A stretch of DNA of 40,825 bases, taken from Escherichia phage vB_EcoS_fKuEco01. A program made the position numbers and the translations under genes. The notes beneath the pieces were generated by a model that was not told the DNA's origin, made no database searches, and saw nothing but the letters and a program-made list of their open reading frames with translations. Every line of letters begins with the position of its first letter. The stretch's first letter is position 1. Positions 4,357-38,573 of this stretch are shown in pieces. The stretch lies in the sequence record MT711525.1, one strand, 5' to 3'.

Positions 4357-4405
4357 GTGCCTGTGATTATTCCAGTTATTCCACTCAATTGTAAATGTTG
4401 GAATA

Positions 4406-4421
4406 AACTATTCGAATAGTT
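4406..4421. promoter_or_regulatory. perfect 16-bp palindrome AACTATTCGAATAGTT (operator-like), overlapping the -35 of the downstream promoter
   Basis: exact reverse-complement symmetry read from the sequence; flanked by TTATTCC/GGAATAA repeats at 4367-4406. Confidence 0.55.
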
Positions 4422-4448
4422 GACTTTTCACCAAAAATGTGCTAAGCT
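4420..4448 (+). promoter_or_regulatory. sigma70-type promoter (TTGACT-17 bp-TGcTAAGCT)
   Basis: -35 TTGACT at 4420-4425, 17-bp spacer, extended -10 TGc-TAAGCT at 4443-4448. Confidence 0.6.
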
Positions 4449-5059: not shown

Positions 5060-5168
5060 CGACGCGGACGAGGATTTAGCTATTGACGTCCAGAACGCAG
5101 AATGTGTACGGCAACTGAGACTTAAAGTGTTCATGTTGCAGGATTACGTGAGGAATATTCTGGAATAG
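4905..5168 (+). CDS. Rz1: o-spanin (Rz1-like lipoprotein)
   Basis: 87 aa; signal peptide with lipobox LTLSAC; Pro-rich mature part; starts inside Rz in the +1 frame. Confidence 0.6.
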   Translation: MKSLSTLKRLAAACALLTLSACSSSPAPSQTPIPSPDTTMMQPPCKLALPSNDADEDLAIDVQNAECVRQLRLKVFMLQDYVRNILE

Positions 5169-5247
5169 TTGCCTTGTATGTTGGAATAATTTATTCTTGA
5201 CATGTAAATCCGGGTGGCCCGGATTCCAACGTCCAGGGGACCTACTG

Positions 5248-10201: not shown

Positions 10202-10224
10202 AAGGCCCCGTTTGGGGCCTTTTT
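10202..10224. terminator. bidirectional terminator hairpin AAGGCCCC-GTTT-GGGGCCTT
   Basis: 8-bp GC stem with T-runs on both strands at a convergent gene junction; exact reverse complement recurs at 22728-22747. Confidence 0.7.
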
Positions 10225-10225
10225 C

Positions 10226-10780
10226 TTACAAACCTAATCTTAAAGCAATGCCTATAGCGTTCGATTTAACGTAACCCGGTATGATGTAGGTGTCATAATC
10301 TTTTACACCATCAATATCGTACAGGTAACCGCGGCTGTCCCCTTCAAACGTATGGCCGTCTCTGTGCAAGCGGACGATTCTCACATCATGCCCCGCGGCA
10401 ACGATAGGGGCTACTTCGCTGGCGAACCCGCCATCAGACACCACAAAAACTTCGTCGCCGTCGGGCAAGTTTCCGGCAAGATACTTACCGAAATAATCAT
10501 CACCGAATACCGGTTTAATGAATTGCTCGGAAATGGCAATCATGAACTGACGCCGAGACAACCCGTTAAGGAAACCCTCTGGCTTTTCTTTCCGCGCCCG
10601 GTCGTCGTAGCCGTCGAGAAACTCGCGGTAAGCATCCTGGCCTAACGCAGCCATAGCAATATTGAACATCGGATTCTTGAAACTGGCGACACCCTTCGCA
10701 AAGCCCATTTCTACCAGCGCCCTAGCAAGTGTGTCTTTCCCGCAGCCCGCAGGACCATTAAGAATAATTACCTTAGCCAT
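10226..10780 (-). CDS. P-loop kinase, dNMP-kinase-like
   Basis: 184 aa; N-terminal Walker A GPAGCGKDT resembling T4 gp1-type nucleotide kinases. Confidence 0.65.
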   Translation of the reverse strand: MAKVIILNGPAGCGKDTLARALVEMGFAKGVASFKNPMFNIAMAALGQDAYREFLDGYDDRARKEKPEGFLNGLSRRQFMIAISEQFIKPVFGDDYFGKYLAGNLPDGDEVFVVSDGGFASEVAPIVAAGHDVRIVRLHRDGHTFEGDSRGYLYDIDGVKDYDTYIIPGYVKSNAIGIALRLGL

Positions 10781-11265
10781 TATTTATCACTCCCATGTGG
10801 TTTTAAGTGTGTAGAGTTCCCGTTACAGTCGTATTCAGTAACTGCGTGAGTGGTTATGCCGAGTTCGCGGAAATGCTTTATTACCGCTGGAGAGTCGTCG
10901 AATGCACACAAGATTCTCTCCGGCCCAATAGCACGCAACACCTCTTCTTTAATTACGATGTCTTTTCTGTTGTCGTGTTTGCTGCGCATGATTAACTGAT
11001 AAAATTCGACGCGGTGGCGCTGCAACCACATTCTGGTTTCTTTTTCCGCGTCATCACTACGGCCTGTTAAGATAATAACGGCATAGCGACGATTAAGGGC
11101 GTTACACAGTTCGATGTTATCTTTAATGGGTGCATCGTCTTTGCACGCCATGTTAAATGGTTTCCACGCCCAGGTTTCGCCGTAGTTATCTTTCGGCAGC
11201 AGGTGTAAACGATGAGTACCATCTGCCAATGTCCCGTCTAAATCGAAAATCACAATATCTTTCAT
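10780..11265 (-). CDS. HAD-family phosphatase resembling the T4 Pnkp 3'-phosphatase domain
   Basis: 161 aa; N-terminal DLDGT motif and a C-terminal segment matching the T4 polynucleotide kinase/phosphatase domain as recalled. Confidence 0.65.
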   Translation of the reverse strand: MKDIVIFDLDGTLADGTHRLHLLPKDNYGETWAWKPFNMACKDDAPIKDNIELCNALNRRYAVIILTGRSDDAEKETRMWLQRHRVEFYQLIMRSKHDNRKDIVIKEEVLRAIGPERILCAFDDSPAVIKHFRELGITTHAVTEYDCNGNSTHLKPHGSDK

Positions 11266-12392
11266 CCAAGCATCTCCGGTGAAATAGTTAAACGTGCGAC
11301 CTCGCCATATTCGGCGCTATAAGTAATTACGTTTGCACTGCGGCCCGACATCCACCCACCGCGGGAGGCATATGCATCTTTAGCCGCGAGAGTGCGGTGT
11401 TGCTCAACAATCATGTTACGGCTTTCTACAATCTTTTGGTGGTGCAGGTGACCCACGTGGGCGTAGCTGTAAACACTCTCGCCGAACGCTTTGCGGAACT
11501 TGGCAATCATAACCGGTTCGATAGCGTCGAATCGTGCTTTATGCCCATGATGGAAGAACAGCGTCGTTTTGCCGTGTTGCACCATCTTGTAAACATCCGG
11601 CGACGTATCGACGAACACACGCGGTTCATTGTCGTACAGCGTACTAAACATCTCAGCTAACCAAATCATTCCGCTTTCGTCGTGGTTACCTTGCACGATA
11701 AGCAAGCGAACATTTTTATGTTTAACGAGAGCCATATCAATGACACGGCGGACCATACGAATCATGTAGCGTACAAGTTTCTGATAGCGGGCGTCAGCGT
11801 CAAGAACATGACCACTGGCAGGTGTAACGGCGTCCAGACTATCGAAATGCGCAAGGTCGCCCAGCAGATTAATAACTCCTGTTCCGGCATCCGGTGCTTT
11901 CTGGAACGCTGCGTCGAACCAGCGGGAGAACAGGTCTTCCGCAATCTTCATGTCCCAGTCGTCGCCGCTCTCGTCAGCCCAGGCCAGCATACCGAGATGG
12001 AAATCAGACACAGTGTAAAGGTTGAGTAGCTTGTCGTCTCGTTTGGCGCGAACGGCTTTAACAGGTGCAACTGGTGTAATCTCCGACTTCATGCCTTCGA
12101 TTACGGCTTTCATCAATTCAACCTGACGTTCGGCATCGGTGTCGGTCTTAACCCATTGCAACTTGGTGTTGCCAAACTCATCCACCAGTGATGATGTTCC
12201 TTTAATCTTGTAGCCGTCCGGTACAAGGTAACTAACGTCACGCCCGTGGCCTACACCTTTCTTAGCCAGCTTCGCTTTACGTATACGAATAACGCGGTCG
12301 GAGATGCCGTATTTACGGGCGATGTCGATATTCTTCATACCGGCGTTCAATTCTTCCTGTAACTGTTCGTCGGTTATTTTCTTCCTGGCCAT
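11262..12392 (-). CDS. HTH domain fused to calcineurin-like metallophosphoesterase (SbcD/Mre11-like motifs)
   Basis: 376 aa; motifs DFHLG, GDLAHFD, GNHDE, HHGH, GHLHH; basic N-terminal helix-turn-helix-like region. Confidence 0.7.
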   Translation of the reverse strand: MARKKITDEQLQEELNAGMKNIDIARKYGISDRVIRIRKAKLAKKGVGHGRDVSYLVPDGYKIKGTSSLVDEFGNTKLQWVKTDTDAERQVELMKAVIEGMKSEITPVAPVKAVRAKRDDKLLNLYTVSDFHLGMLAWADESGDDWDMKIAEDLFSRWFDAAFQKAPDAGTGVINLLGDLAHFDSLDAVTPASGHVLDADARYQKLVRYMIRMVRRVIDMALVKHKNVRLLIVQGNHDESGMIWLAEMFSTLYDNEPRVFVDTSPDVYKMVQHGKTTLFFHHGHKARFDAIEPVMIAKFRKAFGESVYSYAHVGHLHHQKIVESRNMIVEQHRTLAAKDAYASRGGWMSGRSANVITYSAEYGEVARLTISPEMLG

Positions 12393-12429
12393 GCTTATTC
12401 CTCGTGTTTAGGATTTGTCCTATACTAGC

Positions 12430-12636
12430 TCACTTCTCTTTGACATTCGAGTTGCACGCCCAGATTAAGATAAATACCCACGGCAGCAGAACCCAACCAA
12501 GAAACAGATTAGCCATGAATATCGCTAACTTCGCTTTATGGCTACGGAAGTACGCAACCAGGAAAGGCGCGAAATAAGCTAGCAGTGCAAACAGAATTAA
12601 GGAAACTGGTAAACTTGACATTTTAAACCCCTTCAT
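12430..12636 (-). CDS. small two-TM membrane protein, resembles superinfection-immunity (Imm-type) proteins
   Basis: 68 aa (63 from second ATG at 12621); hydrophobic helices with LGWxxxPW-ILIWA-like motif; first gene after the island promoter. Confidence 0.5.
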   Translation of the reverse strand: MKGFKMSSLPVSLILFALLAYFAPFLVAYFRSHKAKLAIFMANLFLGWVLLPWVFILIWACNSNVKEK

Positions 12637-12651
12637 TGTTGGTGTAAGTGA

Positions 12652-12680
12652 ATAGTACCCTATTATATTGGGGTGTGCAA
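12652..12680 (-). promoter_or_regulatory. early-type promoter TTGCACAC-17-TACTATTCACTTA driving the minus-strand island
   Basis: reverse complement of 12645-12690 matches the promoter units at 34582-34610 and 35875-35903. Confidence 0.55.
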
Positions 12681-12788
12681 GTAATGTGATAGAATAAGTT
12701 TGCGCCTAGTGTCGCACACGAAAAGCGGGTGGTTCCCGTCTGGCGCATTTATCGTTAACCTGTAACCTCTTAACCAAAGGATTAAAGA

Positions 12789-19768: not shown

Positions 19769-22723
19769 ATGTCAAGCGGATGTGGTGACGTTTTAAGCCT
19801 GGCGGATTTACAGACCGCCAAGAAGCACCAGATTTTTGAAGCCGAGGTTATCACGGGTAAATCCGGCGGAGTAGCCGGGGGTGCAGATATTGATTACGCG
19901 ACAAACCAGGTTACAGGGCAGACCCAGAAGACACTACCTGCCGTGTTGCGTGATGCTGGTTTTAAACTGGCAGATTTTGATTTCACGTCAGGCGGTACAC
20001 TATCCGCTAACGACCGAAACACCGCAGTTTTGTGGCCGTCGTCCTCTGGTGGCGATGGGGATTGGTACCATTGGTTGGGCGCTCTGCCAAAAACTATCCC
20101 GGCGTCATCTTCTCCGCAGTCCACCGGTGGCGTGGCAGATGGGGCGTGGCAGCCTGTCGGGTCGGTCATACTGCGGCAGCAAATATCTGATGTAAACGGT
20201 GCAATTCTGTACCCAGATTTACATGTGGCGCGATGGAAGGACGAATACGACCCGCGCGCATGGGGCGCCGTGGGCGACGGCGTAACTGATGATACTCAAT
20301 CTATTTTTAATGTATTAGCAGCTTCCCACAACAATTGGATTATAGACGGCAGGGGCTTGACTTATAAAGTTTCCCAATTACCTGACATTAGTAAATTTAA
20401 GAATGCTGCATTCGTTTACGAGCGCGTAGCTGGGCAACCGCTTACTTATGTAGCTGATGGCTTCTTTAACAGCTCACTAACTAAGGTGACGGATACTCCG
20501 TTCTACAACGCATGGACGCAGGATAAAACTTTCGTCTACGACAATGTTATTTACGCTCCCTTTATGGCAGGCGAACGACATGGCGTTCAAAACTTACATG
20601 TAGCTTGGGTTCGCTCTGGTGACGACGGGCAGACTTGGTCAATGCCTGAGTGGTTGACCCCAATCCATGCTGACTATAATGCTAGTGTTTCCGCGGACAG
20701 AGTTAACTACCACTGCATGAGCATGGGTACGTGCGGCAACCGATTATATGCAGTTATAGAAACCCGCTACTTATCTAATATGCGGATGAAGAAGGCAGAA
20801 CTTTGGTCACGCCCAATGCCGTATTTTAGACACCCAACCGGCGGAATAACTATTAGTTCTGGTTCCACTACTGCTACCATTGTTATAGAAAATCACGGCC
20901 TAAAAGCAGGAGATGCGGTTAACTTCTCTAATACATCGGCAACTGGCGTATCGGGTAATATGACGGTTGCGTCTATAATTAACCGAAATACGTTCACTGT
21001 TACGCTCTCAAGCCCGGCGAGTTCCACCATAAACAATGCGGGTGTTACCTGGAACTTCGCAACGCGATTCTGGGACAGCCCGTGGGAAATTACCGAATTG
21101 CCTGAGGTAGCATACTCCACTAACGCTGATTTGTGTGTCACGGAGACACATAGTTTTGCGGTTATAGACGATGTTAACTACACTATCGCTGTCGGCTATC
21201 ACAACGGCGATGTGTCCCCTAGGCGTCTCGGTGTCTTGTATTTTAGTAACGTGTATGACAATCCTGGCGTATTCGTTCGTCGCACTGTCGCTCAGGCATA
21301 CGCTGATAACGCTTCTGAGCCGTGCGTGAAAAGTTATGGTGGTGTGTTATACCTTACCACACGCGGCACATTACCTACTTCCCCTGGCTCTACACTGGCG
21401 ATGAGCACCGATTCTGGGCAAAACTGGAGCTACTTGCGATTTCCGAACAATGTACATCACTCCAATCTTCCGTTCGCTAAAGTAGGTGACTATCTCTACA
21501 TCTTTGGTACAGAACGTGCCTTTGGTGAGTGGGAAGGTGGTGAGCAGGACAGCCGCTATGAAGGTTCGTATCCGAGGACCTTTATGTGCAAAGTTAATGT
21601 GTCGTCCTGGCCTTCATCTTTAGATGATGTTCAGTGGTTTAATATTACCGACCAAATATACCAGGGTCATATCGTTAACTCTGCTGTCGGCGTCGGCTCG
21701 GTCTGTGTTAAAGATGGCTGGTTGTACTATATCTTTGGTGGGGAAGACTTCTTCTCTCCCTGGAGCATAGGGGATAACAGTGCGAAGTTATGGTACAAAC
21801 ATGATGGGCATCCGGCTGACTTATATAGCTACCGGATAAAGATTGAAGACCACCCGTATGTATCCCGTGATTTCAAATACGGAGCAACTCCTAACCGTAC
21901 ACTACCTGTCGCCATGGGGGTAGATGGTGTACGTCATGTAGGGGCACCTTTAACATTTGATAATGATGTAAGCGTGTACTCACTGCATGTAACGGGGCTG
22001 AAATACGATGGTACACAACAGTCCGCCGTGCGTGCACAGTTTGATGGTGATTACGGGCTGATTTCAAAAACAGTCCCCACTAAAAACCCATCGGGTCAAA
22101 GACTGATAGTTAGCGGTGGTGATGGTGCATCCCGTTCCGATGGTGCGTTGCTGCAACTGTACGGGGCAAACCATGCAAAGCCTAACAGGGCTATTATGTA
22201 TGCGTCAGGAGGCTTCTACTCATACAACAATTTTCTTCCTTACTTAGACTCGCGAGTGTCTTTAGGTTCGGCAGGTAATAGGTGGACTACGGTGTACGCG
22301 ACCACCGGTACGATAAATACGTCTGATGGTACACTTAAGACGAATAAAGAGGAAATTGAGGGACAACTCCTTACCGCATGGGAAGATATACATGTAATAT
22401 CTTTTAAGTGGCTTGAAAGCCTAGCAATCAAGGGTGACACTGCAAGGATACACTTCGGTGTGATAGCCCAAGATGTGCGAGACATCTTGGTCAACCATGG
22501 GCTTATGGAGAAAGATTCTACCGATTGTAAATATGCTTTCTTGTGCTACGACCCAATTGAAGCTGCGTATGATATTGATGAAGATGGCCAGACTGTACAA
22601 GTATCCCCTCCCGGCGGCAGATGGGGGGTTAGGGCGGACCAGATGTTCTTCATAGAGATTGCCTATCAGCGTAAGAAGATGCGCGAGTTCGAGAAGAGGC
22701 TGGCAGCACTAGAAGATAAATAA
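19769..22723 (+). CDS. tailspike with sialidase (endosialidase-like) catalytic region and C-terminal intramolecular chaperone domain
   Basis: 984 aa; two Asp-box motifs SGDDGQTW and STDSGQNW; C-terminal segment resembles peptidase-S74-type chaperone domains; strong RBS. Confidence 0.7.
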   Translation: MSSGCGDVLSLADLQTAKKHQIFEAEVITGKSGGVAGGADIDYATNQVTGQTQKTLPAVLRDAGFKLADFDFTSGGTLSANDRNTAVLWPSSSGGDGDWYHWLGALPKTIPASSSPQSTGGVADGAWQPVGSVILRQQISDVNGAILYPDLHVARWKDEYDPRAWGAVGDGVTDDTQSIFNVLAASHNNWIIDGRGLTYKVSQLPDISKFKNAAFVYERVAGQPLTYVADGFFNSSLTKVTDTPFYNAWTQDKTFVYDNVIYAPFMAGERHGVQNLHVAWVRSGDDGQTWSMPEWLTPIHADYNASVSADRVNYHCMSMGTCGNRLYAVIETRYLSNMRMKKAELWSRPMPYFRHPTGGITISSGSTTATIVIENHGLKAGDAVNFSNTSATGVSGNMTVASIINRNTFTVTLSSPASSTINNAGVTWNFATRFWDSPWEITELPEVAYSTNADLCVTETHSFAVIDDVNYTIAVGYHNGDVSPRRLGVLYFSNVYDNPGVFVRRTVAQAYADNASEPCVKSYGGVLYLTTRGTLPTSPGSTLAMSTDSGQNWSYLRFPNNVHHSNLPFAKVGDYLYIFGTERAFGEWEGGEQDSRYEGSYPRTFMCKVNVSSWPSSLDDVQWFNITDQIYQGHIVNSAVGVGSVCVKDGWLYYIFGGEDFFSPWSIGDNSAKLWYKHDGHPADLYSYRIKIEDHPYVSRDFKYGATPNRTLPVAMGVDGVRHVGAPLTFDNDVSVYSLHVTGLKYDGTQQSAVRAQFDGDYGLISKTVPTKNPSGQRLIVSGGDGASRSDGALLQLYGANHAKPNRAIMYASGGFYSYNNFLPYLDSRVSLGSAGNRWTTVYATTGTINTSDGTLKTNKEEIEGQLLTAWEDIHVISFKWLESLAIKGDTARIHFGVIAQDVRDILVNHGLMEKDSTDCKYAFLCYDPIEAAYDIDEDGQTVQVSPPGGRWGVRADQMFFIEIAYQRKKMREFEKRLAALEDK

Positions 22724-25345: not shown

Positions 25346-25645
25346 TTAACTATAATAGCTCGCTATTAGGTCGTCAACCTGTTTAAACGAACCAACGATA
25401 AAAACATTTGCACCGCGTTTACGCATCCGCTCGTGCTCACGTATCTGGTGCGGGTCTGGCTTCGTGTTTTCGTCTTTCTTAACCTCGACGAACCATATGA
25501 CGCCGCCAGGGAGAATTACCAGCAGGTCGGGAGCGCCGGAGCGCCCCTCGTAGGAGAGCTTACGAACGAGGCCGCCGATGGCCTCGAATCGCTCTTTTGC
25601 GTATTTCTGTATTTTGCCTTCCGGTGTCATGAGCGCGGAATCCAA
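25346..25645 (-). CDS. VRR-NUC domain nuclease
   Basis: PD-(D/E)XK-like PDLLVIL ... FVEVKKDE arrangement; likely true start ATG at 25630. Confidence 0.65.
   Translation of the reverse strand: MDSALMTPEGKIQKYAKERFEAIGGLVRKLSYEGRSGAPDLLVILPGGVIWFVEVKKDENTKPDPHQIREHERMRKRGANVFIVGSFKQVDDLIASYYS
25349..25377 (-). promoter_or_regulatory. sigma70 promoter TTGACG-17-TATAGT
   Basis: near-consensus hexamers; lies within the 3' end of the VRR-NUC gene. Confidence 0.5.
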
Positions 25646-28902: not shown

Positions 28903-28931
28903 ACTATAATAGCTAACTATTCAGGTGTCAA
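28903..28931 (-). promoter_or_regulatory. sigma70 promoter TTGACA-17-TATAGT with GAATAGTTAGCTAT in spacer
   Basis: consensus -35 and near-consensus -10 read on the minus strand. Confidence 0.6.
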
Positions 28932-30201: not shown

Positions 30202-30455
30202 TGGTCAATTAAATGTCGTGTCTTATGGTCGCAGTGCATAGCCCAGCCATACATCGACTCGAAGACGTAAAAGTCCGGTTTGGCGAAAGTCGTGCGCTTA
30301 ATCTGCGACACGTGGCGGCCTATATCTTTAGGCCGTGGTACTTTGCCTAAGTACGCCATCTCTTCCATCTGGTGTGCCCCGGACGGCGCACGCAATAACC
30401 ATAGCGCATCTGTGTTATCCCGCCTGTCCACGGCGCGGTAGAGTTGGTAAATCAT
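30183..30455 (-). CDS. hypothetical protein
   Basis: 90-aa ORF. Confidence 0.45.
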   Translation of the reverse strand: MIYQLYRAVDRRDNTDALWLLRAPSGAHQMEEMAYLGKVPRPKDIGRHVSQIKRTTFAKPDFYVFESMYGWAMHCDHKTRHLIDQWESRV

Positions 30456-30498
30456 AATCCCGACCCTCAGTTAAAGCGGCCCGAAGGCCGCGGGATAG

Positions 30499-30969
30499 TT
30501 ATTCTTCTTCGAAATACTTGTTCTTGATTGCTGTCAGGCGCTCCAGATACTCAGCCAGGTCTTCGTCTTTAATCGCTGCAATCTTCATCTTCTTACCGGT
30601 AAACTCTTCCAGCAGTTCGTCAGAATCGTCGCACGCGGCATCGCTTGGGCCTTCGTTAATCGCATCGTCGATAGCCTGAATCTGGTCGCGCAGAGACTGG
30701 TAATCGACTTCTTCTTTCTCTTCTTCCGGCTCTGGCGTTGGCTCCTCTACTTTAGCTTTACGCGGCTTGCGCTTCGGCTTCTCTTCTTCTGCTGGTTTAG
30801 TGTCAATGGTGTCTTCACCTTCTACCGGGATTTCTTTCGTTACTTCTTTCACAACAGTAGGCTCTATTGTTGCAGTTTCGGCAACGACAACTTGTTTCGC
30901 ACTGTTCGCAGCAATCAGTTCATGTGCAACTACGAAACGTTCCAGTAATACTAAGAATTTCTCTAACAT
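30499..30969 (-). CDS. highly acidic protein of unknown function
   Basis: 156 aa, Glu/Asp-rich with a short basic patch; first gene after promoter 31001-31030. Confidence 0.5.
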   Translation of the reverse strand: MLEKFLVLLERFVVAHELIAANSAKQVVVAETATIEPTVVKEVTKEIPVEGEDTIDTKPAEEEKPKRKPRKAKVEEPTPEPEEEKEEVDYQSLRDQIQAIDDAINEGPSDAACDDSDELLEEFTGKKMKIAAIKDEDLAEYLERLTAIKNKYFEEE

Positions 30970-31000
30970 TTGTTTCTCTCCTCTCGTTTGGTATGGGCTA

Positions 31001-31030
31001 ACTATAATAGCTAACTATTCATGTTGTCAA
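31001..31030 (-). promoter_or_regulatory. sigma70 promoter TTGACA-18-TATAGT with GAATAGTTAGCTAT in spacer
   Basis: consensus hexamers; divergent from the HTH gene at 31095. Confidence 0.6.
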
Positions 31031-31094
31031 TGGGCTTTTCTAAAATAATTAATATGGTACTATTCACATATCAACTGACTAAGGAGTAATTGGC

Positions 31095-31310
31095 ATGCAA
31101 CCATCTGAACTAGGTATCCGTGTAGAGCAACGCCGTAAAGAACTCGGTATCTCCCAGCGCCATCTGGCTGTCCTGGCCGGTGTTTCCCAAGGCGCGATTA
31201 ACCAGCTGGCACTTGGGGTAACTCAGGACGTCCGCCCAGCGACGCTGTTTAAACTGGCGGAAGTGCTGCAAGTAGACGCCAAGTGGCTGGCGTTGGGTGA
31301 AGGGGCTTAA
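31095..31310 (+). CDS. XRE-family helix-turn-helix transcriptional regulator (Cro/CI-like)
   Basis: 71 aa; ISQRHLAVLAGVSQGAINQL HTH; AGGAG RBS; transcribed divergently from the replication genes. Confidence 0.7.
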   Translation: MQPSELGIRVEQRRKELGISQRHLAVLAGVSQGAINQLALGVTQDVRPATLFKLAEVLQVDAKWLALGEGA

Positions 31311-31326
31311 CGCCCTTTATTTTTAC

Positions 31327-33588
31327 CTATTCCAAATCCTCCTCTGTCACTGTCAGCATTTCATTCGGTTCGTATATCGTCTTCGGAATCTTGTTGTCGT
31401 TTATGCCCCACGGCAGCCGGTACTGCTTAGGTATGGGCCTGTTGTTGTTATCCAGACCCGAGACGATAATCCCGGCCTCATGCATCTCTTCCAGTTTCTT
31501 TCGAAGGTCGTTATTAGCGTTAATCGGTACGCCGTAACTATCTTCTTTCGCCGCTTTGACGATAGCTGACATAGAGAACCCTCGCTTGTCGTCGCCTTGC
31601 TCCTGCAATTTACCTAATGCGTAAATAACCGTAGCCTCTTTGGAATCCAGTTTCTCGAACTGGCCTACCTTTTCTTTAACGGCTTCCTTCTGTTCGTCAG
31701 TCATACCTTCTACTTTCTTCACAAAGACAGAGAAGGCGTTGAAGTTGACAAAGACATCAATATGCGGATTTCCCGCGTCAAAATCGCGCACATCATCACT
31801 GCTATACCCTTCCGGAAGCCCCATGAAGTTGTGAGTTGGTTCTTTCTTTTCCGGCGGCTCCGCTATCTGAATCTTCTGTATTACGAATCCTCTGGCTTTC
31901 TGCCGTTCTCCATTTCGGTTCTTTATGTGATACAGGTTTATCTCTAAGTTATTGTCGTTGTCTGGTTTATGCAGGAACATCCCGTTATCGATGGAGTTGT
32001 GAAAATCACTTCCACCCTTCGGCATCATGCCGTTTTCAGACGGAACAGTTTCGTCGATGTTTTTAGTCGGGTGCACCATAGCGCCTACCGCAGCGTTAAG
32101 CGTCGACGCTATTTCGTTAAGCGCCTGCGCCGCTTCTTTCATAGACCGGTTGTCGTTCTCGTCGAAGCCCGGTATGCAAGTTTGTAGAGTATCAAACGTA
32201 ACCTTTACAATTTTCTCTTCACCGGCGACACGGCGCATCATTCTCACCGCCTGGCGACGCCATGCTTCGTCGAGGAGGTTACACCCATCTGCAACACAAT
32301 CGATAATGTGTAAGCGGTCGAGGCTATCGCCAAGTGCAATCTGCAAAGATTTTTTATGTCTCTCGAACGACTGCGCACCTTCGCCCGCGAAGATAAATGC
32401 GTGACCTTCTGCGACCTCAGCACCACCGAACGCATATCTTTTTTCGGCGGCGATAGCAGCGTCAATCGCCATACTAAATGTTGACTTACCAGTGTGGGAC
32501 TTTGCGCAAATGTAGAACGATTCGTTGGTCTGCATAAGGCCGTCTACTACGGGGTAAGCAGGTTCTTTTTCTACTTCCGGCTCGTCTTCGAGGTCTTCAA
32601 GCGTACAAGTTACAGGCTCCTCGTTCTCTGTGCGGTGCAGTTCTTCAATCTCTTCGTCCGGTAAGTCAGGCAAAGCCGCACGAATGCTGTTAATACTGAT
32701 AGGTTGCTTGTCTACGTTAAGCTCGTCGGGCAGGCCGCACATACGCAAGGCCAAATGTTGCCGACGGTTAAGCTCGGTACAAGCGCCGTTGTTTGTGTGC
32801 TGGCACACGAAGCGCACCTCTTTACCGTCAAGCATGATGCTGGTGGAGCCTTTGCCTGTATGCAGATGTTCGTTCGGACATGGCACTTCATACCCTCGGC
32901 CGGAAGATAAAGCGTCAAGGCCCAGCTCGGCTTCGCAGAAATGAGCTATATCTGCGTTAAGCCCGTGCTCATCGGCGGCAAGTGTCTTAGCCTCGCGTTT
33001 ACGCAGCCCCATCTCTTCGGCTTTCTTGATGTACCGCTCCGCACGGATAACACGCCCTTCTGTAACCGTTATCTTAGACTCTTTATGCGGCAGGTAGATG
33101 AGGCGGTTGCCGTCTTCCGTGCAGTGGTCGCGCAGCGATTCATCTATTTCTAACTCGGCACAAATAGCACGTTGCACCATCCACGCGTCGTTAGAGTTAA
33201 ACGGCGTGCGAGCTGGAACCAGAACGCGGAATGCGTAATCCCCGTTTTTACACGCGTGCTGGTGTGACGCCGTTGTATGCAGAATGTTGAAGAACGGCGC
33301 ATTCTTAAATTTGCGTGTCAGGTTGCGGTACTGAGTACGGTTGAGATGGTCAAAGTCGAACTTAACCACACTGTCTTCCAGAATCGCGTTCTTACGGCGA
33401 CCACCAACAGGTGCGATAGCTTTCTGTTTAATCTTGGCGGCGTCGTACTCTTCCTTAGTCCACGACGGGTCCACGGATAAACGCTTCGATGTATCACAGA
33501 CATACTCCACAAACTGCTCCAGCGGCATTTCACGCGCTACAGGGTTTTTATCGAATGTGTTACGCAGCGTCGCAAAAACAATATTCAT
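31327..33588 (-). CDS. primase-helicase
   Basis: 753 aa; Cys/His zinc-binding segment; P-loop AKSHTGKST. Confidence 0.65.
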   Translation of the reverse strand: MNIVFATLRNTFDKNPVAREMPLEQFVEYVCDTSKRLSVDPSWTKEEYDAAKIKQKAIAPVGGRRKNAILEDSVVKFDFDHLNRTQYRNLTRKFKNAPFFNILHTTASHQHACKNGDYAFRVLVPARTPFNSNDAWMVQRAICAELEIDESLRDHCTEDGNRLIYLPHKESKITVTEGRVIRAERYIKKAEEMGLRKREAKTLAADEHGLNADIAHFCEAELGLDALSSGRGYEVPCPNEHLHTGKGSTSIMLDGKEVRFVCQHTNNGACTELNRRQHLALRMCGLPDELNVDKQPISINSIRAALPDLPDEEIEELHRTENEEPVTCTLEDLEDEPEVEKEPAYPVVDGLMQTNESFYICAKSHTGKSTFSMAIDAAIAAEKRYAFGGAEVAEGHAFIFAGEGAQSFERHKKSLQIALGDSLDRLHIIDCVADGCNLLDEAWRRQAVRMMRRVAGEEKIVKVTFDTLQTCIPGFDENDNRSMKEAAQALNEIASTLNAAVGAMVHPTKNIDETVPSENGMMPKGGSDFHNSIDNGMFLHKPDNDNNLEINLYHIKNRNGERQKARGFVIQKIQIAEPPEKKEPTHNFMGLPEGYSSDDVRDFDAGNPHIDVFVNFNAFSVFVKKVEGMTDEQKEAVKEKVGQFEKLDSKEATVIYALGKLQEQGDDKRGFSMSAIVKAAKEDSYGVPINANNDLRKKLEEMHEAGIIVSGLDNNNRPIPKQYRLPWGINDNKIPKTIYEPNEMLTVTEEDLE

Positions 33589-33763: not shown

Positions 33764-33997
33764 CTAGCGTTGGGGTTTCTTTTGTCTACGCACCGCATTA
33801 ACCCACTCTCCTTCGCTACGGTAAAAACTGCAATCAAGGATATCCTCTATAGAAAATTTAACTATTTTAGTGGGTCCACAAAAGTTATAAGGGAAAAGTT
33901 CTACATAACACCCATCGTCGGTTATATTTGACGCAATCTTGAAATAATATTTAATGCTGCCGTCTTCGCGGAAGCTACAACCCATACGCCCAATCAT
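33764..33997 (-). CDS. hypothetical protein (AT-rich gene)
   Basis: 77-aa ORF with lower GC than its neighbours. Confidence 0.4.
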   Translation of the reverse strand: MIGRMGCSFREDGSIKYYFKIASNITDDGCYVELFPYNFCGPTKIVKFSIEDILDCSFYRSEGEWVNAVRRQKKPQR

Positions 33998-34176
33998 TTC
34001 ACGTTCTCCTTAATCCATGCTTCAACTTTATTACGGTCAAATGTTCCAGGCAAACGGCGACCCATAACCTTAATACAACAATCCGGGAATTTACCACTGC
34101 GTAACCAGTTATTAATTGTCTGACGTGTCACCCCAATACGCTCGGCTACTTCATTCTGGGTCATGTAATGTTGCAT
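33994..34176 (-). CDS. small HTH DNA-binding protein (AlpA/excisionase-like fold)
   Basis: ATG 34176 preceded by AGGAG; MTQNEVAERIGVTRQTINNW motif; track ORF extends to GTG 34248. Confidence 0.55.
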   Translation of the reverse strand: MQHYMTQNEVAERIGVTRQTINNWLRSGKFPDCCIKVMGRRLPGTFDRNKVEAWIKENVK

Positions 34177-34207: not shown

Positions 34208-34236
34208 AGTATAGGATAGCGGGAATGTAAAAGCAA
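34208..34236 (-). promoter_or_regulatory. promoter TTGCTT-17-TATACT for the HTH gene
   Basis: hexamers read on the minus strand; divergent from the promoter at 34284. Confidence 0.4.
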
Positions 34237-34283
34237 CCAAAACACCACACAAAGTTACTAAGATGCAAAAGATGCTACTGGTA

Positions 34284-34312
34284 TTGACTTTTACTGAGAA
34301 ATATGGTAAGCT
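34284..34312 (+). promoter_or_regulatory. sigma70-type promoter (TTGACT-17 bp-TGgTAAGCT)
   Basis: same architecture and -10 as the promoter at 4420-4448. Confidence 0.6.
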
Positions 34313-34315
34313 CGT

Positions 34316-34428
34316 CCTGAGCTTGTGAAGTATGAACAAGCGACCGCGGTGCGCGGCAGGCGAAACGAGCACGTCTCGACGTGTGGAGTGAGTCTCGCTG
34401 ACGCATTCGGAAGGGCCAAAGTCTATTG
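34316..34428 (+). ncRNA. conserved promoter-proximal RNA element, copy 2
   Basis: shares conserved 5' and 3' blocks with 4452-4562; central segment differs. Confidence 0.5.
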
Positions 34429-34499
34429 TAATTCCCGCCTAATTATCTAAGTTACTGATTTGCCGTAGGTTAGAACCGCCAGCTCACTCACTCACTCTT

Positions 34500-34530
34500 G
34501 GTGCCTTCGGCACCACGTTCGTTTCGTTTC
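34500..34530 (+). terminator. terminator-like hairpin GGTGCC-UUCG-GCACC with U-rich tail
   Basis: tetraloop hairpin followed by acgttcgtttcgtttcg. Confidence 0.4.
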
Positions 34531-34581
34531 GCTCGCTACCCCCTTAAACGAAAGAATCACAACGGCAACGTAACTAATCTC

Positions 34582-34610
34582 TTGCACACCCCAACATAAT
34601 AGGATACTAT
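34582..34610 (+). promoter_or_regulatory. early-type promoter TTGCAC-17-TACTAT with conserved leader
   Basis: near-identical unit at 35875-35903 and, on the minus strand, 12652-12680. Confidence 0.55.
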
Positions 34611-34644
34611 TCACTTATCGAAACGAGACAGAGGAGTGAGGGTT

Positions 34645-34830
34645 ATGTTTAAACGTGGTCAGTTGGTTAAATGCGCCGACGATAAACACGGCATAATTGA
34701 ATTAAAATCTGCTTTATTTCCAGGAAAGTACGTAGTTACCGTGCAAAATGTGAGAGGAGTAAATTCACAAATATACGTAGCGGAGGAGAACTTAAAACTC
34801 ATCGGCAACAATTTTAAATTTAAAGGGTGA
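34645..34830 (+). CDS. hypothetical early protein (AT-rich)
   Basis: ATG 34645 after GAGGAG; track ORF starts at GTG 34636. Confidence 0.45.
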   Translation: MFKRGQLVKCADDKHGIIELKSALFPGKYVVTVQNVRGVNSQIYVAEENLKLIGNNFKFKG

Positions 34831-34834
34831 AGTG

Positions 34835-35035
34835 ATGGAAGAATTATTTGAAGAACTGAAACATCATGATTTCGAGGAAATATATTTCGTAGCTGAACGC
34901 TACGAGGTGCATCTGGCGGACGGTATAACGGTTATTACATCTACCAGCGAGCGAATGTTAAATAGCTTACGAGCAATACGAACGGCATCGAATCATGATG
35001 CTTGTGCCGACGACTCTGAGGGAGGTTGCCGTTAA
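34835..35035 (+). CDS. hypothetical early protein
   Basis: 66-aa ORF with RBS. Confidence 0.45.
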   Translation: MEELFEELKHHDFEEIYFVAERYEVHLADGITVITSTSERMLNSLRAIRTASNHDACADDSEGGCR

Positions 35036-35214
35036 TGCGAATCCGTATAACTGACCGCAGGCTTATCCGTATAACTGACCGCAGGCTTATAGATTTCTGT
35101 ATCTCGGTAGGTGATGTTTTTCCGGCGTTCAGCATCAACCATTATGGTTTTATGATTGAGTACAAAGGGTCGTTATTGTTCGTGTATCGGGATGAATGTG
35201 AGGTTCTGGTATGA
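35035..35214 (+). CDS. hypothetical protein containing an in-frame 24-bp tandem duplication
   Basis: ATG overlaps upstream stop (TAATG); repeat encodes IRITDRRL twice. Confidence 0.35.
   Translation: MRIRITDRRLIRITDRRLIDFCISVGDVFPAFSINHYGFMIEYKGSLLFVYRDECEVLV
35043..35090. repeat. exact 24-bp tandem duplication (CCGTATAACTGACCGCAGGCTTAT x2)
   Basis: two perfect adjacent copies read from the sequence. Confidence 0.9.
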
Positions 35215-35366
35215 GAGAAGCATTTGAACGGTGGGCTGTGGTCGAGGGTCTGCCGGTTAACAAGGGTTCAAAGAAAGAGTACCTGAACGTTAAGACGCGT
35301 CTCGCGTGGCGGGCGTGGAAAGCTGGTGTGCAATCCTTGATTGAAAGAGGTGTGAGGTATGGGTGA
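35211..35366 (+). CDS. hypothetical protein
   Basis: 51-aa ORF coupled to neighbours by overlapping stop/start. Confidence 0.35.
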   Translation: MREAFERWAVVEGLPVNKGSKKEYLNVKTRLAWRAWKAGVQSLIERGVRYG

Positions 35367-35559
35367 GTGGATTAAGTGTAGTGAGATGCTGCCGGGTAAT
35401 GGGTATACGGATAAAGAGTTCCTGGTGTATGAAACGTTAAATAACGCAGTTCAGCACGATTATTACATAGTTCCTGATGACGGGAGAAAGCCTTTCTGGA
35501 ATCACTACGATAAGTACGTGACGCACTGGATGCCGTTACCCGAGCCGCCAGAAGTGTGA
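35359..35559 (+). CDS. hypothetical protein (possibly DUF551-like)
   Basis: 66 aa; C-terminal HWMPLPEPP motif. Confidence 0.45.
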   Translation: MGEWIKCSEMLPGNGYTDKEFLVYETLNNAVQHDYYIVPDDGRKPFWNHYDKYVTHWMPLPEPPEV

Positions 35560-35693
35560 TGTTCAATAGTTTGGGATTTTACTGAGTGACTTACGCTGCT
35601 ACACAGCAGCGTACAACTTTAACTTAGTGTCGTCAAAAGGCGACACTTTCATCAAACGCAACAATCGAAGCGACTATTGCAGGAGATGCAACA

Positions 35694-35867
35694 ATGATTA
35701 CTAAAGAACAGGCTGAACGACTAATCACGTTAATCGACACGATGGTTGATGCTAAAACCGATTTAGCAACGGCGACAGAGGAATCCGCTACCTGGTCGCT
35801 TGAAGAAAGAGAAGCAGAAGCGGAAAGGGAGTTACTGGCGTTCATCGACTCTATAACACACCAATAA
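35694..35867 (+). CDS. hypothetical protein
   Basis: 57-aa ORF with AGGAG RBS; below the ORF-track cutoff. Confidence 0.4.
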   Translation: MITKEQAERLITLIDTMVDAKTDLATATEESATWSLEEREAEAERELLAFIDSITHQ

Positions 35868-35874
35868 AATTTAC

Positions 35875-35903
35875 TTGCACACTGGGATAGAATAGGCTAC
35901 TAT
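35875..35903 (+). promoter_or_regulatory. early-type promoter TTGCAC-17-TACTAT with conserved leader
   Basis: matches the unit at 34582-34610 including the AACGAGAGGAG leader. Confidence 0.55.
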
Positions 35904-35933
35904 TCATTTACACAAACGAGAGGAGAGACAGAG

Positions 35934-36071
35934 ATGGGCTGGTACGGTAGCTGTACTTTAGGCGAACTGTTAGATGCTTACGAAATAATGGGTAGCACTT
36001 CGGTGTGTGACGGCGACACTAAATCGCTGCTAGTCGGGGTGGATGAGAAAAGGGGTGAAGCTGATGAGTAA
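35934..36071 (+). CDS. hypothetical protein
   Basis: 45-aa ORF with GAGGAG RBS. Confidence 0.3.
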   Translation: MGWYGSCTLGELLDAYEIMGSTSVCDGDTKSLLVGVDEKRGEADE

Positions 36072-38490: not shown

Positions 38491-38522
38491 ATCCCGGCCC
38501 TGACCCAGCCGGGATTTTTTTT
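38491..38522 (+). terminator. strong rho-independent terminator after lysis cassette
   Basis: ATCCCGGC ... GCCGGGAT hairpin followed by eight T. Confidence 0.8.
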
Positions 38523-38544
38523 ATCTGTCTTCTGTAATGGCTAG

Positions 38545-38573
38545 TTGACTATTACCTTAGACCCTATTATATT
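38545..38573 (+). promoter_or_regulatory. sigma70 promoter TTGACT-17-TATATT
   Basis: near-consensus hexamers upstream of the ORF at 38607. Confidence 0.55.

Follow-up and report, generated by a model that had tools for sequence, protein, structure and literature searches.

The genome of Escherichia phage vB_EcoS_fKuEco01 (sequence record MT711525.1; 40,825 nucleotides (nt), all of which were analyzed and are referred to below as the window) carries the same promoter-like segment three times, and the question raised by this repetition is what these segments are and which protein might act on them. A sequence-only reading had interpreted them as a repeated early promoter-leader cassette located at 34582-34650 and 35875-35936, with the promoter part recurring on the minus strand at 12652-12680. 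Reading of the sequence and alignment of the three regions showed that these coordinates are right and that the minus-strand recurrence is exact: TTGCAC-N17-TACTAT is present with 0 mismatches at exactly three sites in the window (34582, plus strand; 35875, plus strand; 12680, minus strand), designated B, C, and A, respectively. In all three, it is followed by TCA(C/T)TTA, and the alignment is nearly identical across about 38 nt. The three copies of the cassette are thus real; however, the set to which they belong consists of seven predicted promoters (A to G), and the element common to all of them is a 14-bp palindrome (dyad). We propose that these are sigma-70 promoters of a seven-member regulon, in which the dyad is the operator of a single Cro-like repressor, and we assign a probability of about 0.6 to this reading.

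The 14-bp dyad at promoter-like sites

Within each of the class I cassettes A, B, and C, a perfect palindrome, AATAG-N4-CTATT, overlaps the −10 hexamer. Additional matches to the 18-mer core ATAATAGGNTACTATTCA (6 matches in the window with up to 3 mismatches, compared to 0.03 expected) led to this palindrome. In an unbiased enumeration of all 5+5 palindromes with spacers of 0 to 8 nt, AATAG-N4-CTATT ranked first, with 6 exact copies in the window, 6 in Escherichia phage vB_EcoS_fTaEco03, and 4 in Jerseyvirus Ent1; the runners-up were GC-rich terminator stems. At promoter-like sites of the window, six dyads are exact (12651, 25354, 28908, 31006, 34598, and 35891) and one has a single mismatch (31051, AATAT), and altogether nine sites have no more than one mismatch, compared to 0.96 expected. 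All seven dyads are located 30–59 nt upstream of a correctly oriented start codon. Five of them are fully intergenic, whereas G overlaps the last VRR-NUC codons and A overlaps a 41-codon open reading frame (ORF). The latter, TE3_021 of fTaEco03 (window 12623-12748, minus strand; L001 13061-13186), contains the whole of promoter A with its dyad and is unlikely to be a gene.

The dyads are found in two layouts (Table 1). In class I (TTGCAC-N10-AATAGGnTACTATT-CA), the −10 hexamer TACTAT is inside the right arm and the dyad covers about −19 to −6. Site E is arranged likewise, with an extended −10 (TGgTACTAT) and no −35. In class II (D, F, and G), TTGAC(A/G)-N4/5-AATAG-N4-CTAT is followed by TATAGT, which places the dyad within the spacer (about −25 to −12). 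The imm promoter of Ent1 has an intermediate register (TTGCAT-N7-AATAGTGTCCTATT-AT, −10 TATTAT). The dyad centre is at about −12.5 in A, B, C, and E, at about −18.5 in D, F, and G, and at about −15.5 at the Ent1 imm promoter. In addition, weak dyads with 1–2 mismatches cover the −35 elements of two putative late promoters (4415 and 38540) and an extended −10 at 2787.

Table 1. Coordinates of the predicted promoters, dyads, leaders, and associated genes in the window.
Feature	Position	Strand	Details
Promoter B	34582-34617	+	−35 TTGCAC 34582-34587; 17-nt spacer; −10 TACTAT 34605-34610; TCACTTA ending 34617
Palindrome B, AATAGGATACTATT	34598-34611	+	predicted +1 near A34617
Leader B (cgAAACGAGAcaGAGGAG; tcgAAACGAGAcaGAGGAGtgagggtt) and start codon	34618-34647	+	ATG 34645
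First ORF of unit B	34645-34830	+	61 amino acids; phrog_12538; unknown function
Promoter C	35875-35910	+	TTGCAC 35875-35880; TACTAT 35898-35903; TCATTTA ending 35910
Palindrome C, AATAGGCTACTATT	35891-35904	+	predicted +1 near A35910
Leader C (caAAACGAGAGGAGAG; cacAAACGAGAGGAGAGAcagag) and start codon	35911-35936	+	ATG 35934; ORF of 45 amino acids
Promoter A	12645-12680	−	TTGCAC 12680-12675; TACTAT 12657-12652; TCACTTA ending 12645
Palindrome A	12651-12664	−	predicted +1 near 12645; promoter heads antisense island
Island under promoter A	10226-12644	−	leader caccaacaatgaagggg; Imm_superinfect gene, ATG 12621
Promoter D (class II)	31001-31030	−	TTGACA 31030-31025; 18-nt spacer; TATAGT 31006-31001
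Palindrome D, AATAGCTAACTATT	31006-31019	−	in spacer; leader ccAAACGAGAGGAGAGAaacaa same as cassette C; ATG 30969
Dyad E, AATATGGTACTATT, imperfect	31051-31064	+	extended −10 of XRE gene: TG 31055-31056, TACTAT 31058-31063
XRE-family HTH_3 protein, Cro-like, proposed binder of the palindrome	31095-31310	+	71 amino acids
Promoter F (class II)	28903-28931	−	TTGACA 28931-28926; 17-nt spacer; TATAGT 28908-28903; palindrome 28908-28921
Promoter G (class II)	25349-25377	−	TTGACG 25377-25372; 17-nt spacer; TATAGT 25354-25349
Palindrome G, AATAGCTCGCTATT	25354-25367	−	leader cacaccaacaatataagg resembles leader A
Promoter H, predicted, contrast case	34208-34236	−	TTGCTT-N17-TATACT, without palindrome; predicted to serve the HTH_17-to-primase operon

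A, B, and C are very probably host-type sigma-70 promoters, with their activity predicted from sequence. The class I hexamers match the consensus at 3/6 (TTGCAC, with TTG kept) and 4/6 positions (TACTAT, with A2 and T6 kept), and those of D and F (TTGACA/TATAGT) at 11 of the 12. The spacer is 17 nt long in A, B, C, F, and G and 18 nt long in D, and E has a TGn extended −10. Class I conservation ends at the predicted +1 A, 7 nt past the −10. An alternative −10, yATAAT, located 7 nt past TTGCAC, was dropped as a general promoter element because it has a plausible −35 only at site A.

The sequence-only reading also placed a common leader behind B and C. This is correct, with AAACGAGA(..)GAGGAG preceding the ATG in both. 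The leader of A is different. Two further matches had been overlooked: the leader of B and C is also found behind the differently built promoter D, and that of A behind promoter G. The leaders are modular, with AAACGAGAGGAGAGA after B, C, and D and a second type, CACCAACAAT..AAGG, after A and G. Each of A, B, and C is 30–34 nt upstream of a start codon with a strong Shine-Dalgarno sequence. The leaders are short and rich in purines; they fold no better than shuffled controls and are less structured (z +1.1 to +1.9), consistent with efficient translation initiation.

The same sequence had been listed earlier as a 20-mer by the repeat-finder PHIRE in three genome papers, on the phages Golestan, fBC-Eco01, and SGP-C. 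Seven sites were given for Golestan (e.g., TAATAGGATACTATTCACTT; PMC7203180 Table S4), and seven for fBC-Eco01 with the consensus tgAATAGTa-ccTATTat-T, which is the cassette on the other strand (PMC9825357 Table S2). Unlike the present analysis, these papers give their ‘phage-specific conserved promoter’ 20-mers as lists only, without the palindrome, the −35/−10 geometry, the two architectures, or a link to the XRE gene. The fBC-Eco01 list was published under the heading ‘phage RNAP promoter’ (PMC9825357), which would make the 20-mer the promoter of a phage-encoded RNA polymerase. This explanation is next to impossible, being refuted by gene content: an RNA polymerase gene is absent among the 75 annotated genes of fTaEco03 and from the annotations of Ent1, VSiP, SenTO17, and TS33 (five genomes). 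Moreover, the sites have normal −35/−10 geometry, and PHIRE merely finds repeated 20-mers, regardless of the polymerase used. The label is therefore wrong.

Conservation of the dyad and its candidate binding protein

Conservation was analyzed in 37 Kagunavirus loci gathered via the XRE protein. The arms are invariant in these loci, whereas the central four bases vary, with the centre variants GCTAAC, GTGAAC, GCGAAC, GCTAGC, and GCAAAC at D and GCTCGC, GTTCGC, GTCTGC, and GCCCGC at G. The one-base defect of site E is invariant in 30 unique orthologues, and promoter B is kept in 28 unique Kagunavirus orthologues. The F and D/E promoters were also aligned across five lineages (Kagunavirus, Jerseyvirus Ent1, Cornellvirus VSiP, SenTO17, and Hafnia phage TS33). 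The columns that never vary in these alignments comprise both hexamers (−35 and −10) together with A.TA in the left and TA in the right arm; the centre is free. The degenerate dyad AWTAB-N4-VTAWT is present 8–11 times per genome in Kaguna-, Jersey-, Cornell-, SenTO17-, and TS33-type phages, compared to 1.1–1.8 expected, nearly always at promoter-like sites, and Cornell-type phages favour ATTAG/ATTAC arms.

Plain sigma-70 promoters without a dedicated repressor, made identical by recent duplication or gene conversion and by selection on the spacer and the −10 for strength, could produce part of this pattern, as hardly any differences exist among the three class I copies across about 38 nt, the cassette acts like a mobile unit, and the right arm CTAT overlaps −10-like hexamers (TACTAT, TATAGT), so that the −10 partly explains the palindrome. 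Yet the left arm, although part of the spacer, in which sigma-70 does not require particular bases, is invariant, which indicates that the dyad is more than promoter sequence. Furthermore, the register of the dyad differs among promoter classes, with shifts of 3 and 6 bp, and the dyad occurs in both orientations relative to transcription, which is unexpected if contacts with RNA polymerase caused the conservation. Finally, plain promoters would leave the symmetry unexplained, with the arms kept and the centre free across genera with diverged flanks. We therefore regard this explanation as improbable.

If the dyad is an operator, the most likely binder is the 71-residue Cro-like XRE protein of the phage, with binding predicted from the following features. 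The protein matches Pfam HTH_3 (E = 9.7e-12, 45 bits, cut-off 23) and the PHROG ‘transcriptional repressor’ families, and, of all solved structures, that of phage 434 Cro matches it best (E = 1.8e-6, residues 6–68); both proteins have 71 residues. A single-sequence AlphaFold (AF2) model contains five helices with a predicted local distance difference test (pLDDT) score of 74, and a fold search with this model retrieved 434 Cro (2cro, E 0.025), the P22 c2 N-terminal domain, and the 434 repressor as top matches. Since the model is only of moderate quality, these E-values are weak, and we rely on the sequence-level match to the Protein Data Bank (PDB) instead. 434 Cro acts as a dimer on 14-bp operators. 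Directly in front of the XRE gene, where transcription diverges, dyads D and E are 45 bp apart, and all five lineages share this arrangement: D is perfect and covers the divergent leftward promoter, whereas E is imperfect and covers the promoter of the XRE gene itself.

Alternatively, the dyad might be bound by another protein, such as the HTH_17/excisionase-like protein encoded at 33994-34176, another small early protein, or a host factor, and the effect might then be activation or anti-repression. We consider this unlikely, although further helix-turn-helix (HTH) proteins are encoded in the genome, weak dyads are also located over the −35 of the putative late promoters at 4415 and 38540, and XRE helix and half-site sequences do not covary. 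The XRE gene alone carries a pair of dyads in its control region, and does so in 5/5 lineages, and dyad centres at −12 to −19 within 17/18-nt spacers fit steric occlusion rather than activation of the class I/II or MerR type, the latter requiring 19–20-nt spacers. The HTH_17 protein is the weaker candidate: its predicted promoter (34236-34208, TTGCTT-17-TATACT) lacks the dyad, and proteins of the HTH_17/Xis type are small monomers that typically bind direct repeats. As for host factors, we know of no E. coli factor that uses AATAG-N4-CTATT. The sites of OxyR (ATAG-N7-CTAT), the ArgR box, which differs from the dyad, and LexA were rejected because their spacing does not fit.

The proposed arrangement of a Cro-like protein and its dyads resembles the control by Cro and operators (OR/OL) in 434, lambda, and P22 in several respects. 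A small HTH protein of the XRE fold is combined with a 14-bp dyad whose arms are conserved and whose centre varies freely; the proposed operators cover cores of presumed early sigma-70 promoters; and two are located beside the repressor gene, one of them imperfect, with the others at distant, presumably early promoters. Unlike in these phages, there are seven or more dispersed single operators instead of two triple arrays, the candidate half-site is AATAG and not ACAA, and the phage is a virulent siphovirus without a cI partner, an integrase, or prophage copies. No copy of the XRE region (30400-31400) was found in 5,426 complete E. coli genomes, with the exception of one CRISPR spacer, and a prophage or temperate origin was therefore rejected. 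This type I-E spacer of 33 nt, in E. coli 2017.09.02CC (NZ_AP025214.2, beside cas2e), is 100% identical to 31026-31058 in the D/E operator region. A CRISPR spacer as the only match is consistent with a strictly virulent lifestyle.

The cassette as a possible portable module

The window is a nearly complete, approximately 41-kb genome of a Kagunavirus (Guernseyvirinae). The 3 kb surrounding the cassettes are 98.5% identical to fTaEco03, and the relatives include K1G, K1H, K1ind, and other Kagunaviruses. According to the annotation of the nearly identical fTaEco03 record, the plus strand encodes the terminase/head/tail module, with an antisense island wedged between tail tube and tail chaperone genes. 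Next come a leftward replication block, the small gene of the XRE ‘repressor’, and a primase operon that also points leftward, and finally rightward-pointing small ORFs, the lysis genes, and further small ORFs. Only 5.6% of the genome is non-coding, and no tRNAs were found in the window. Promoter F heads the genes for DUF2815 and the DNA polymerase, and promoter G a 63-residue ORF, a methyltransferase, and a helicase.

Promoter A heads the antisense island. The earlier proposal that this island in the tail module belongs to the same regulatory set as B and C is thereby borne out as a sequence tie. Past the Imm_superinfect gene, the island encodes a metallophosphoesterase, a HAD/PNK-like phosphatase, and a dNMP kinase, and its 3′ limit is a GC-rich bidirectional hairpin (10203-10225). 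The metallophosphoesterase (11262-12392, minus strand) opens with an HTH-like segment, ITDEQLQEELNAGMKNIDIARKYGISDRVIRIRKAKL, spotted by eye in the translation. The island (10226-12680) is similar to the morons of lambdoid phages in that it has its own promoter, ends at a bidirectional hairpin, and is located between the tail tube and tail chaperone genes with a content that varies by genus. However, in contrast to morons, which are promoter-gene-terminator inserts in late operons, it is antisense to the late operon of a virulent phage, and its promoter belongs to the phage's own regulon and is not prophage-expressed.

A second role, compatible with that of an operator-bearing promoter, is suggested by the distribution of the cassette. 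In IMG/VR, the exact class I pattern was found only in contigs of Kagunavirus size, with 2–4 copies per genome, the fourth copy, where present, heading an insert in the head module. Among 93 unique cassettes, pairwise identity is about 0.9 over about 80 nt, from −20 to the ATG, and drops to about 0.3 on both flanks of cassette C. In relatives, at least 19 different first ORFs are found behind cassette C, and several first genes behind cassette A (e.g., of the MKGFKM-, MRKLVL-, and MLSQIR-type). Thus, the approximately 80-nt cassette may be a portable regulatory module fronting varied accessory genes. The PeSL cassettes of T4-type phages (PMC2839356, PMC4122927) are comparable: in both cases, a repeated early-promoter cassette persists, here at about 90% identity, with neighbouring ORFs swapped among close relatives, and the copies front small genes without a known function in hyperplastic regions. 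However, a PeSL consists of a promoter and a stem-loop terminator, whereas cassettes A and C include no hairpin, and the copies are far fewer (2–4 per genome). Signs of excised circles or of recombination at the cassette were neither looked for nor seen. No hairpin is located directly upstream of A or C, and the one nearest to B (34499-34515), 65 nt upstream, belongs to another unit.

This hairpin is the end of the second copy of the largest direct repeat in the genome (4420-4640 and 34284-34520, plus strand), which lies just 5′ of cassette B. Both paralogous elements open with TTGACT-N17-TAAGCT, and a 2-nt indel breaks the frame between them, resulting in ORFs of 36 and 19 residues. Twelve variants of the element have a common fold of 29 pairs, 8 of them with compensatory changes, and 97.7% of cells are paired, compared to 31–43% in slid controls. 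The window has no Rfam match at gathering thresholds, and only noise is seen at E<5 in 34270-34560; the repeat is a candidate for a new small RNA absent from Rfam. A 24-nt unit, ATCCGTATAACTGACCGCAGGCTT, is exactly duplicated in tandem at 35041-35088, within ORF 35026-35214. The sequence AATAGTTTGGGATT at 35565-35578 is a decayed dyad, whose counterpart at the same place in other Kagunaviruses is intact, AATAG(G/C)TTACTATT. Two strong hairpins come next, at 35592-35647 (z = −4.8), the first of which, ACGCTGCTacacAGCAGCGT, is kept in Jerseyvirus Ent1.

A second motif, GGAATAA-N1-2-TTATTC, with extra GGAATA repeats, adjoins the −35 (TTGACT/TTGACA) of putative structural-module promoters. It was found at 4400-4425 and 5152-5202 in the window, at about 7706-7740 in L003, at 395, 648, and 1278 in L004, and at 22650 and 23473 in L005. 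Being conserved across genera, it is possibly the site of a late activator. Past the lysis cassette, at 38505-38573, a terminator (cccggc...gccggg and a T run) is directly followed by TTGACT-17-TATATT. This arrangement is kept in Ent1 (about 40860-40920), and a weak dyad, GCTAGTTGACTATT, lies over the −35.

Proposed control circuit and its significance

From the sequences, statistics, positions, conservation pattern, and protein family described above, we infer promoter activity, binding by the XRE protein, repression, and timing, which would be connected as follows. On entry of the phage, the host E-sigma70 would fire all eight promoters. The Cro-like protein would then build up, fill the perfect operators as a dimer, and occlude RNA polymerase, thereby shutting down the accessory units under A (imm, phosphoesterase, PNK-like, dNMP kinase) and under B and C (small ORFs, function unknown), and likewise the replication units under D, F, and G. 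The XRE gene itself would be throttled last, through the conserved imperfect site E. It can be speculated that the weak dyads at 4415, 38540, and 2787 would permit graded control.

Several points weigh against this circuit. The class I −35 matches only 3/6 positions of the TTGACA consensus, and a consensus promoter scan of the window did not list A, B, or C. For Guernseyvirinae, the searchable literature contains no transcription-start, footprint, or binding data. If C were the sole promoter upstream of the lysis genes, its full repression would be problematic. The XRE proteins of the Kaguna and Jersey types are 49% identical and have different recognition helices (SQGAINQ vs. SQSLITH) for the same half-site, AATAG. 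Conversely, the Jersey and Cornell helices are similar and the half-sites differ (AATAG vs. ATTAG/ATTAC). Thus, across the five lineages half-site changes do not track changes in the recognition helix, and there is no protein-operator covariation that would favour the XRE protein. Lastly, temporal RNA sequencing (RNA-seq) of Kagunavirus K1B4 (PMC12645636), the only such study of a Kagunavirus in the searchable literature, assigned imm, XRE, and polymerase to different peak classes: an HTH gene was early; XRE and primase middle; imm, methylase, and polymerase late. However, sampling in that study was from 5 to 120 min, with at most 8.9% phage reads and a ‘late’ peak at 110–120 min for a latent period of 30 min. 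Such multi-cycle, coarse data neither confirm nor credibly refute a common class.

A more far-reaching version of the circuit, which we regard as possible though rather doubtful, is that one Cro-like protein with graded operators sets the timing of the complete programme in a virulent siphovirus lacking an RNA polymerase, a sigma factor, and any known late activator. The quality of the operators would be graded from perfect at the accessory and replication promoters, via one mismatch at the protein's own promoter, to one to two mismatches at the −35 of 4415 and 38540. The operator cassette would double as a recombination junction for accessory genes, and if this is true, exchanged accessory genes would automatically fall under the control of the Cro-like protein.

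With respect to the initial question, the model of seven promoters explains why the antisense island of the tail module and the accessory-gene units share a control sequence, and it corrects the description of these sites as ‘phage RNAP promoters’ in the literature. As Cro-type control of early promoters is textbook biology, no general concept is altered; the circuit is an uncharacterised example of textbook regulation in a practically important subfamily. The Guernseyvirinae (Kagunavirus, Jerseyvirus, and Cornellvirus) are among the most common E. coli and Salmonella phage isolates for therapy and food biocontrol, and their gene regulation is essentially undescribed. The model supplies targets that can be tested directly in these phages, namely a small protein and a site of 14 bp, and it suggests a use in phage engineering for the cassette as a compact, repressible promoter.

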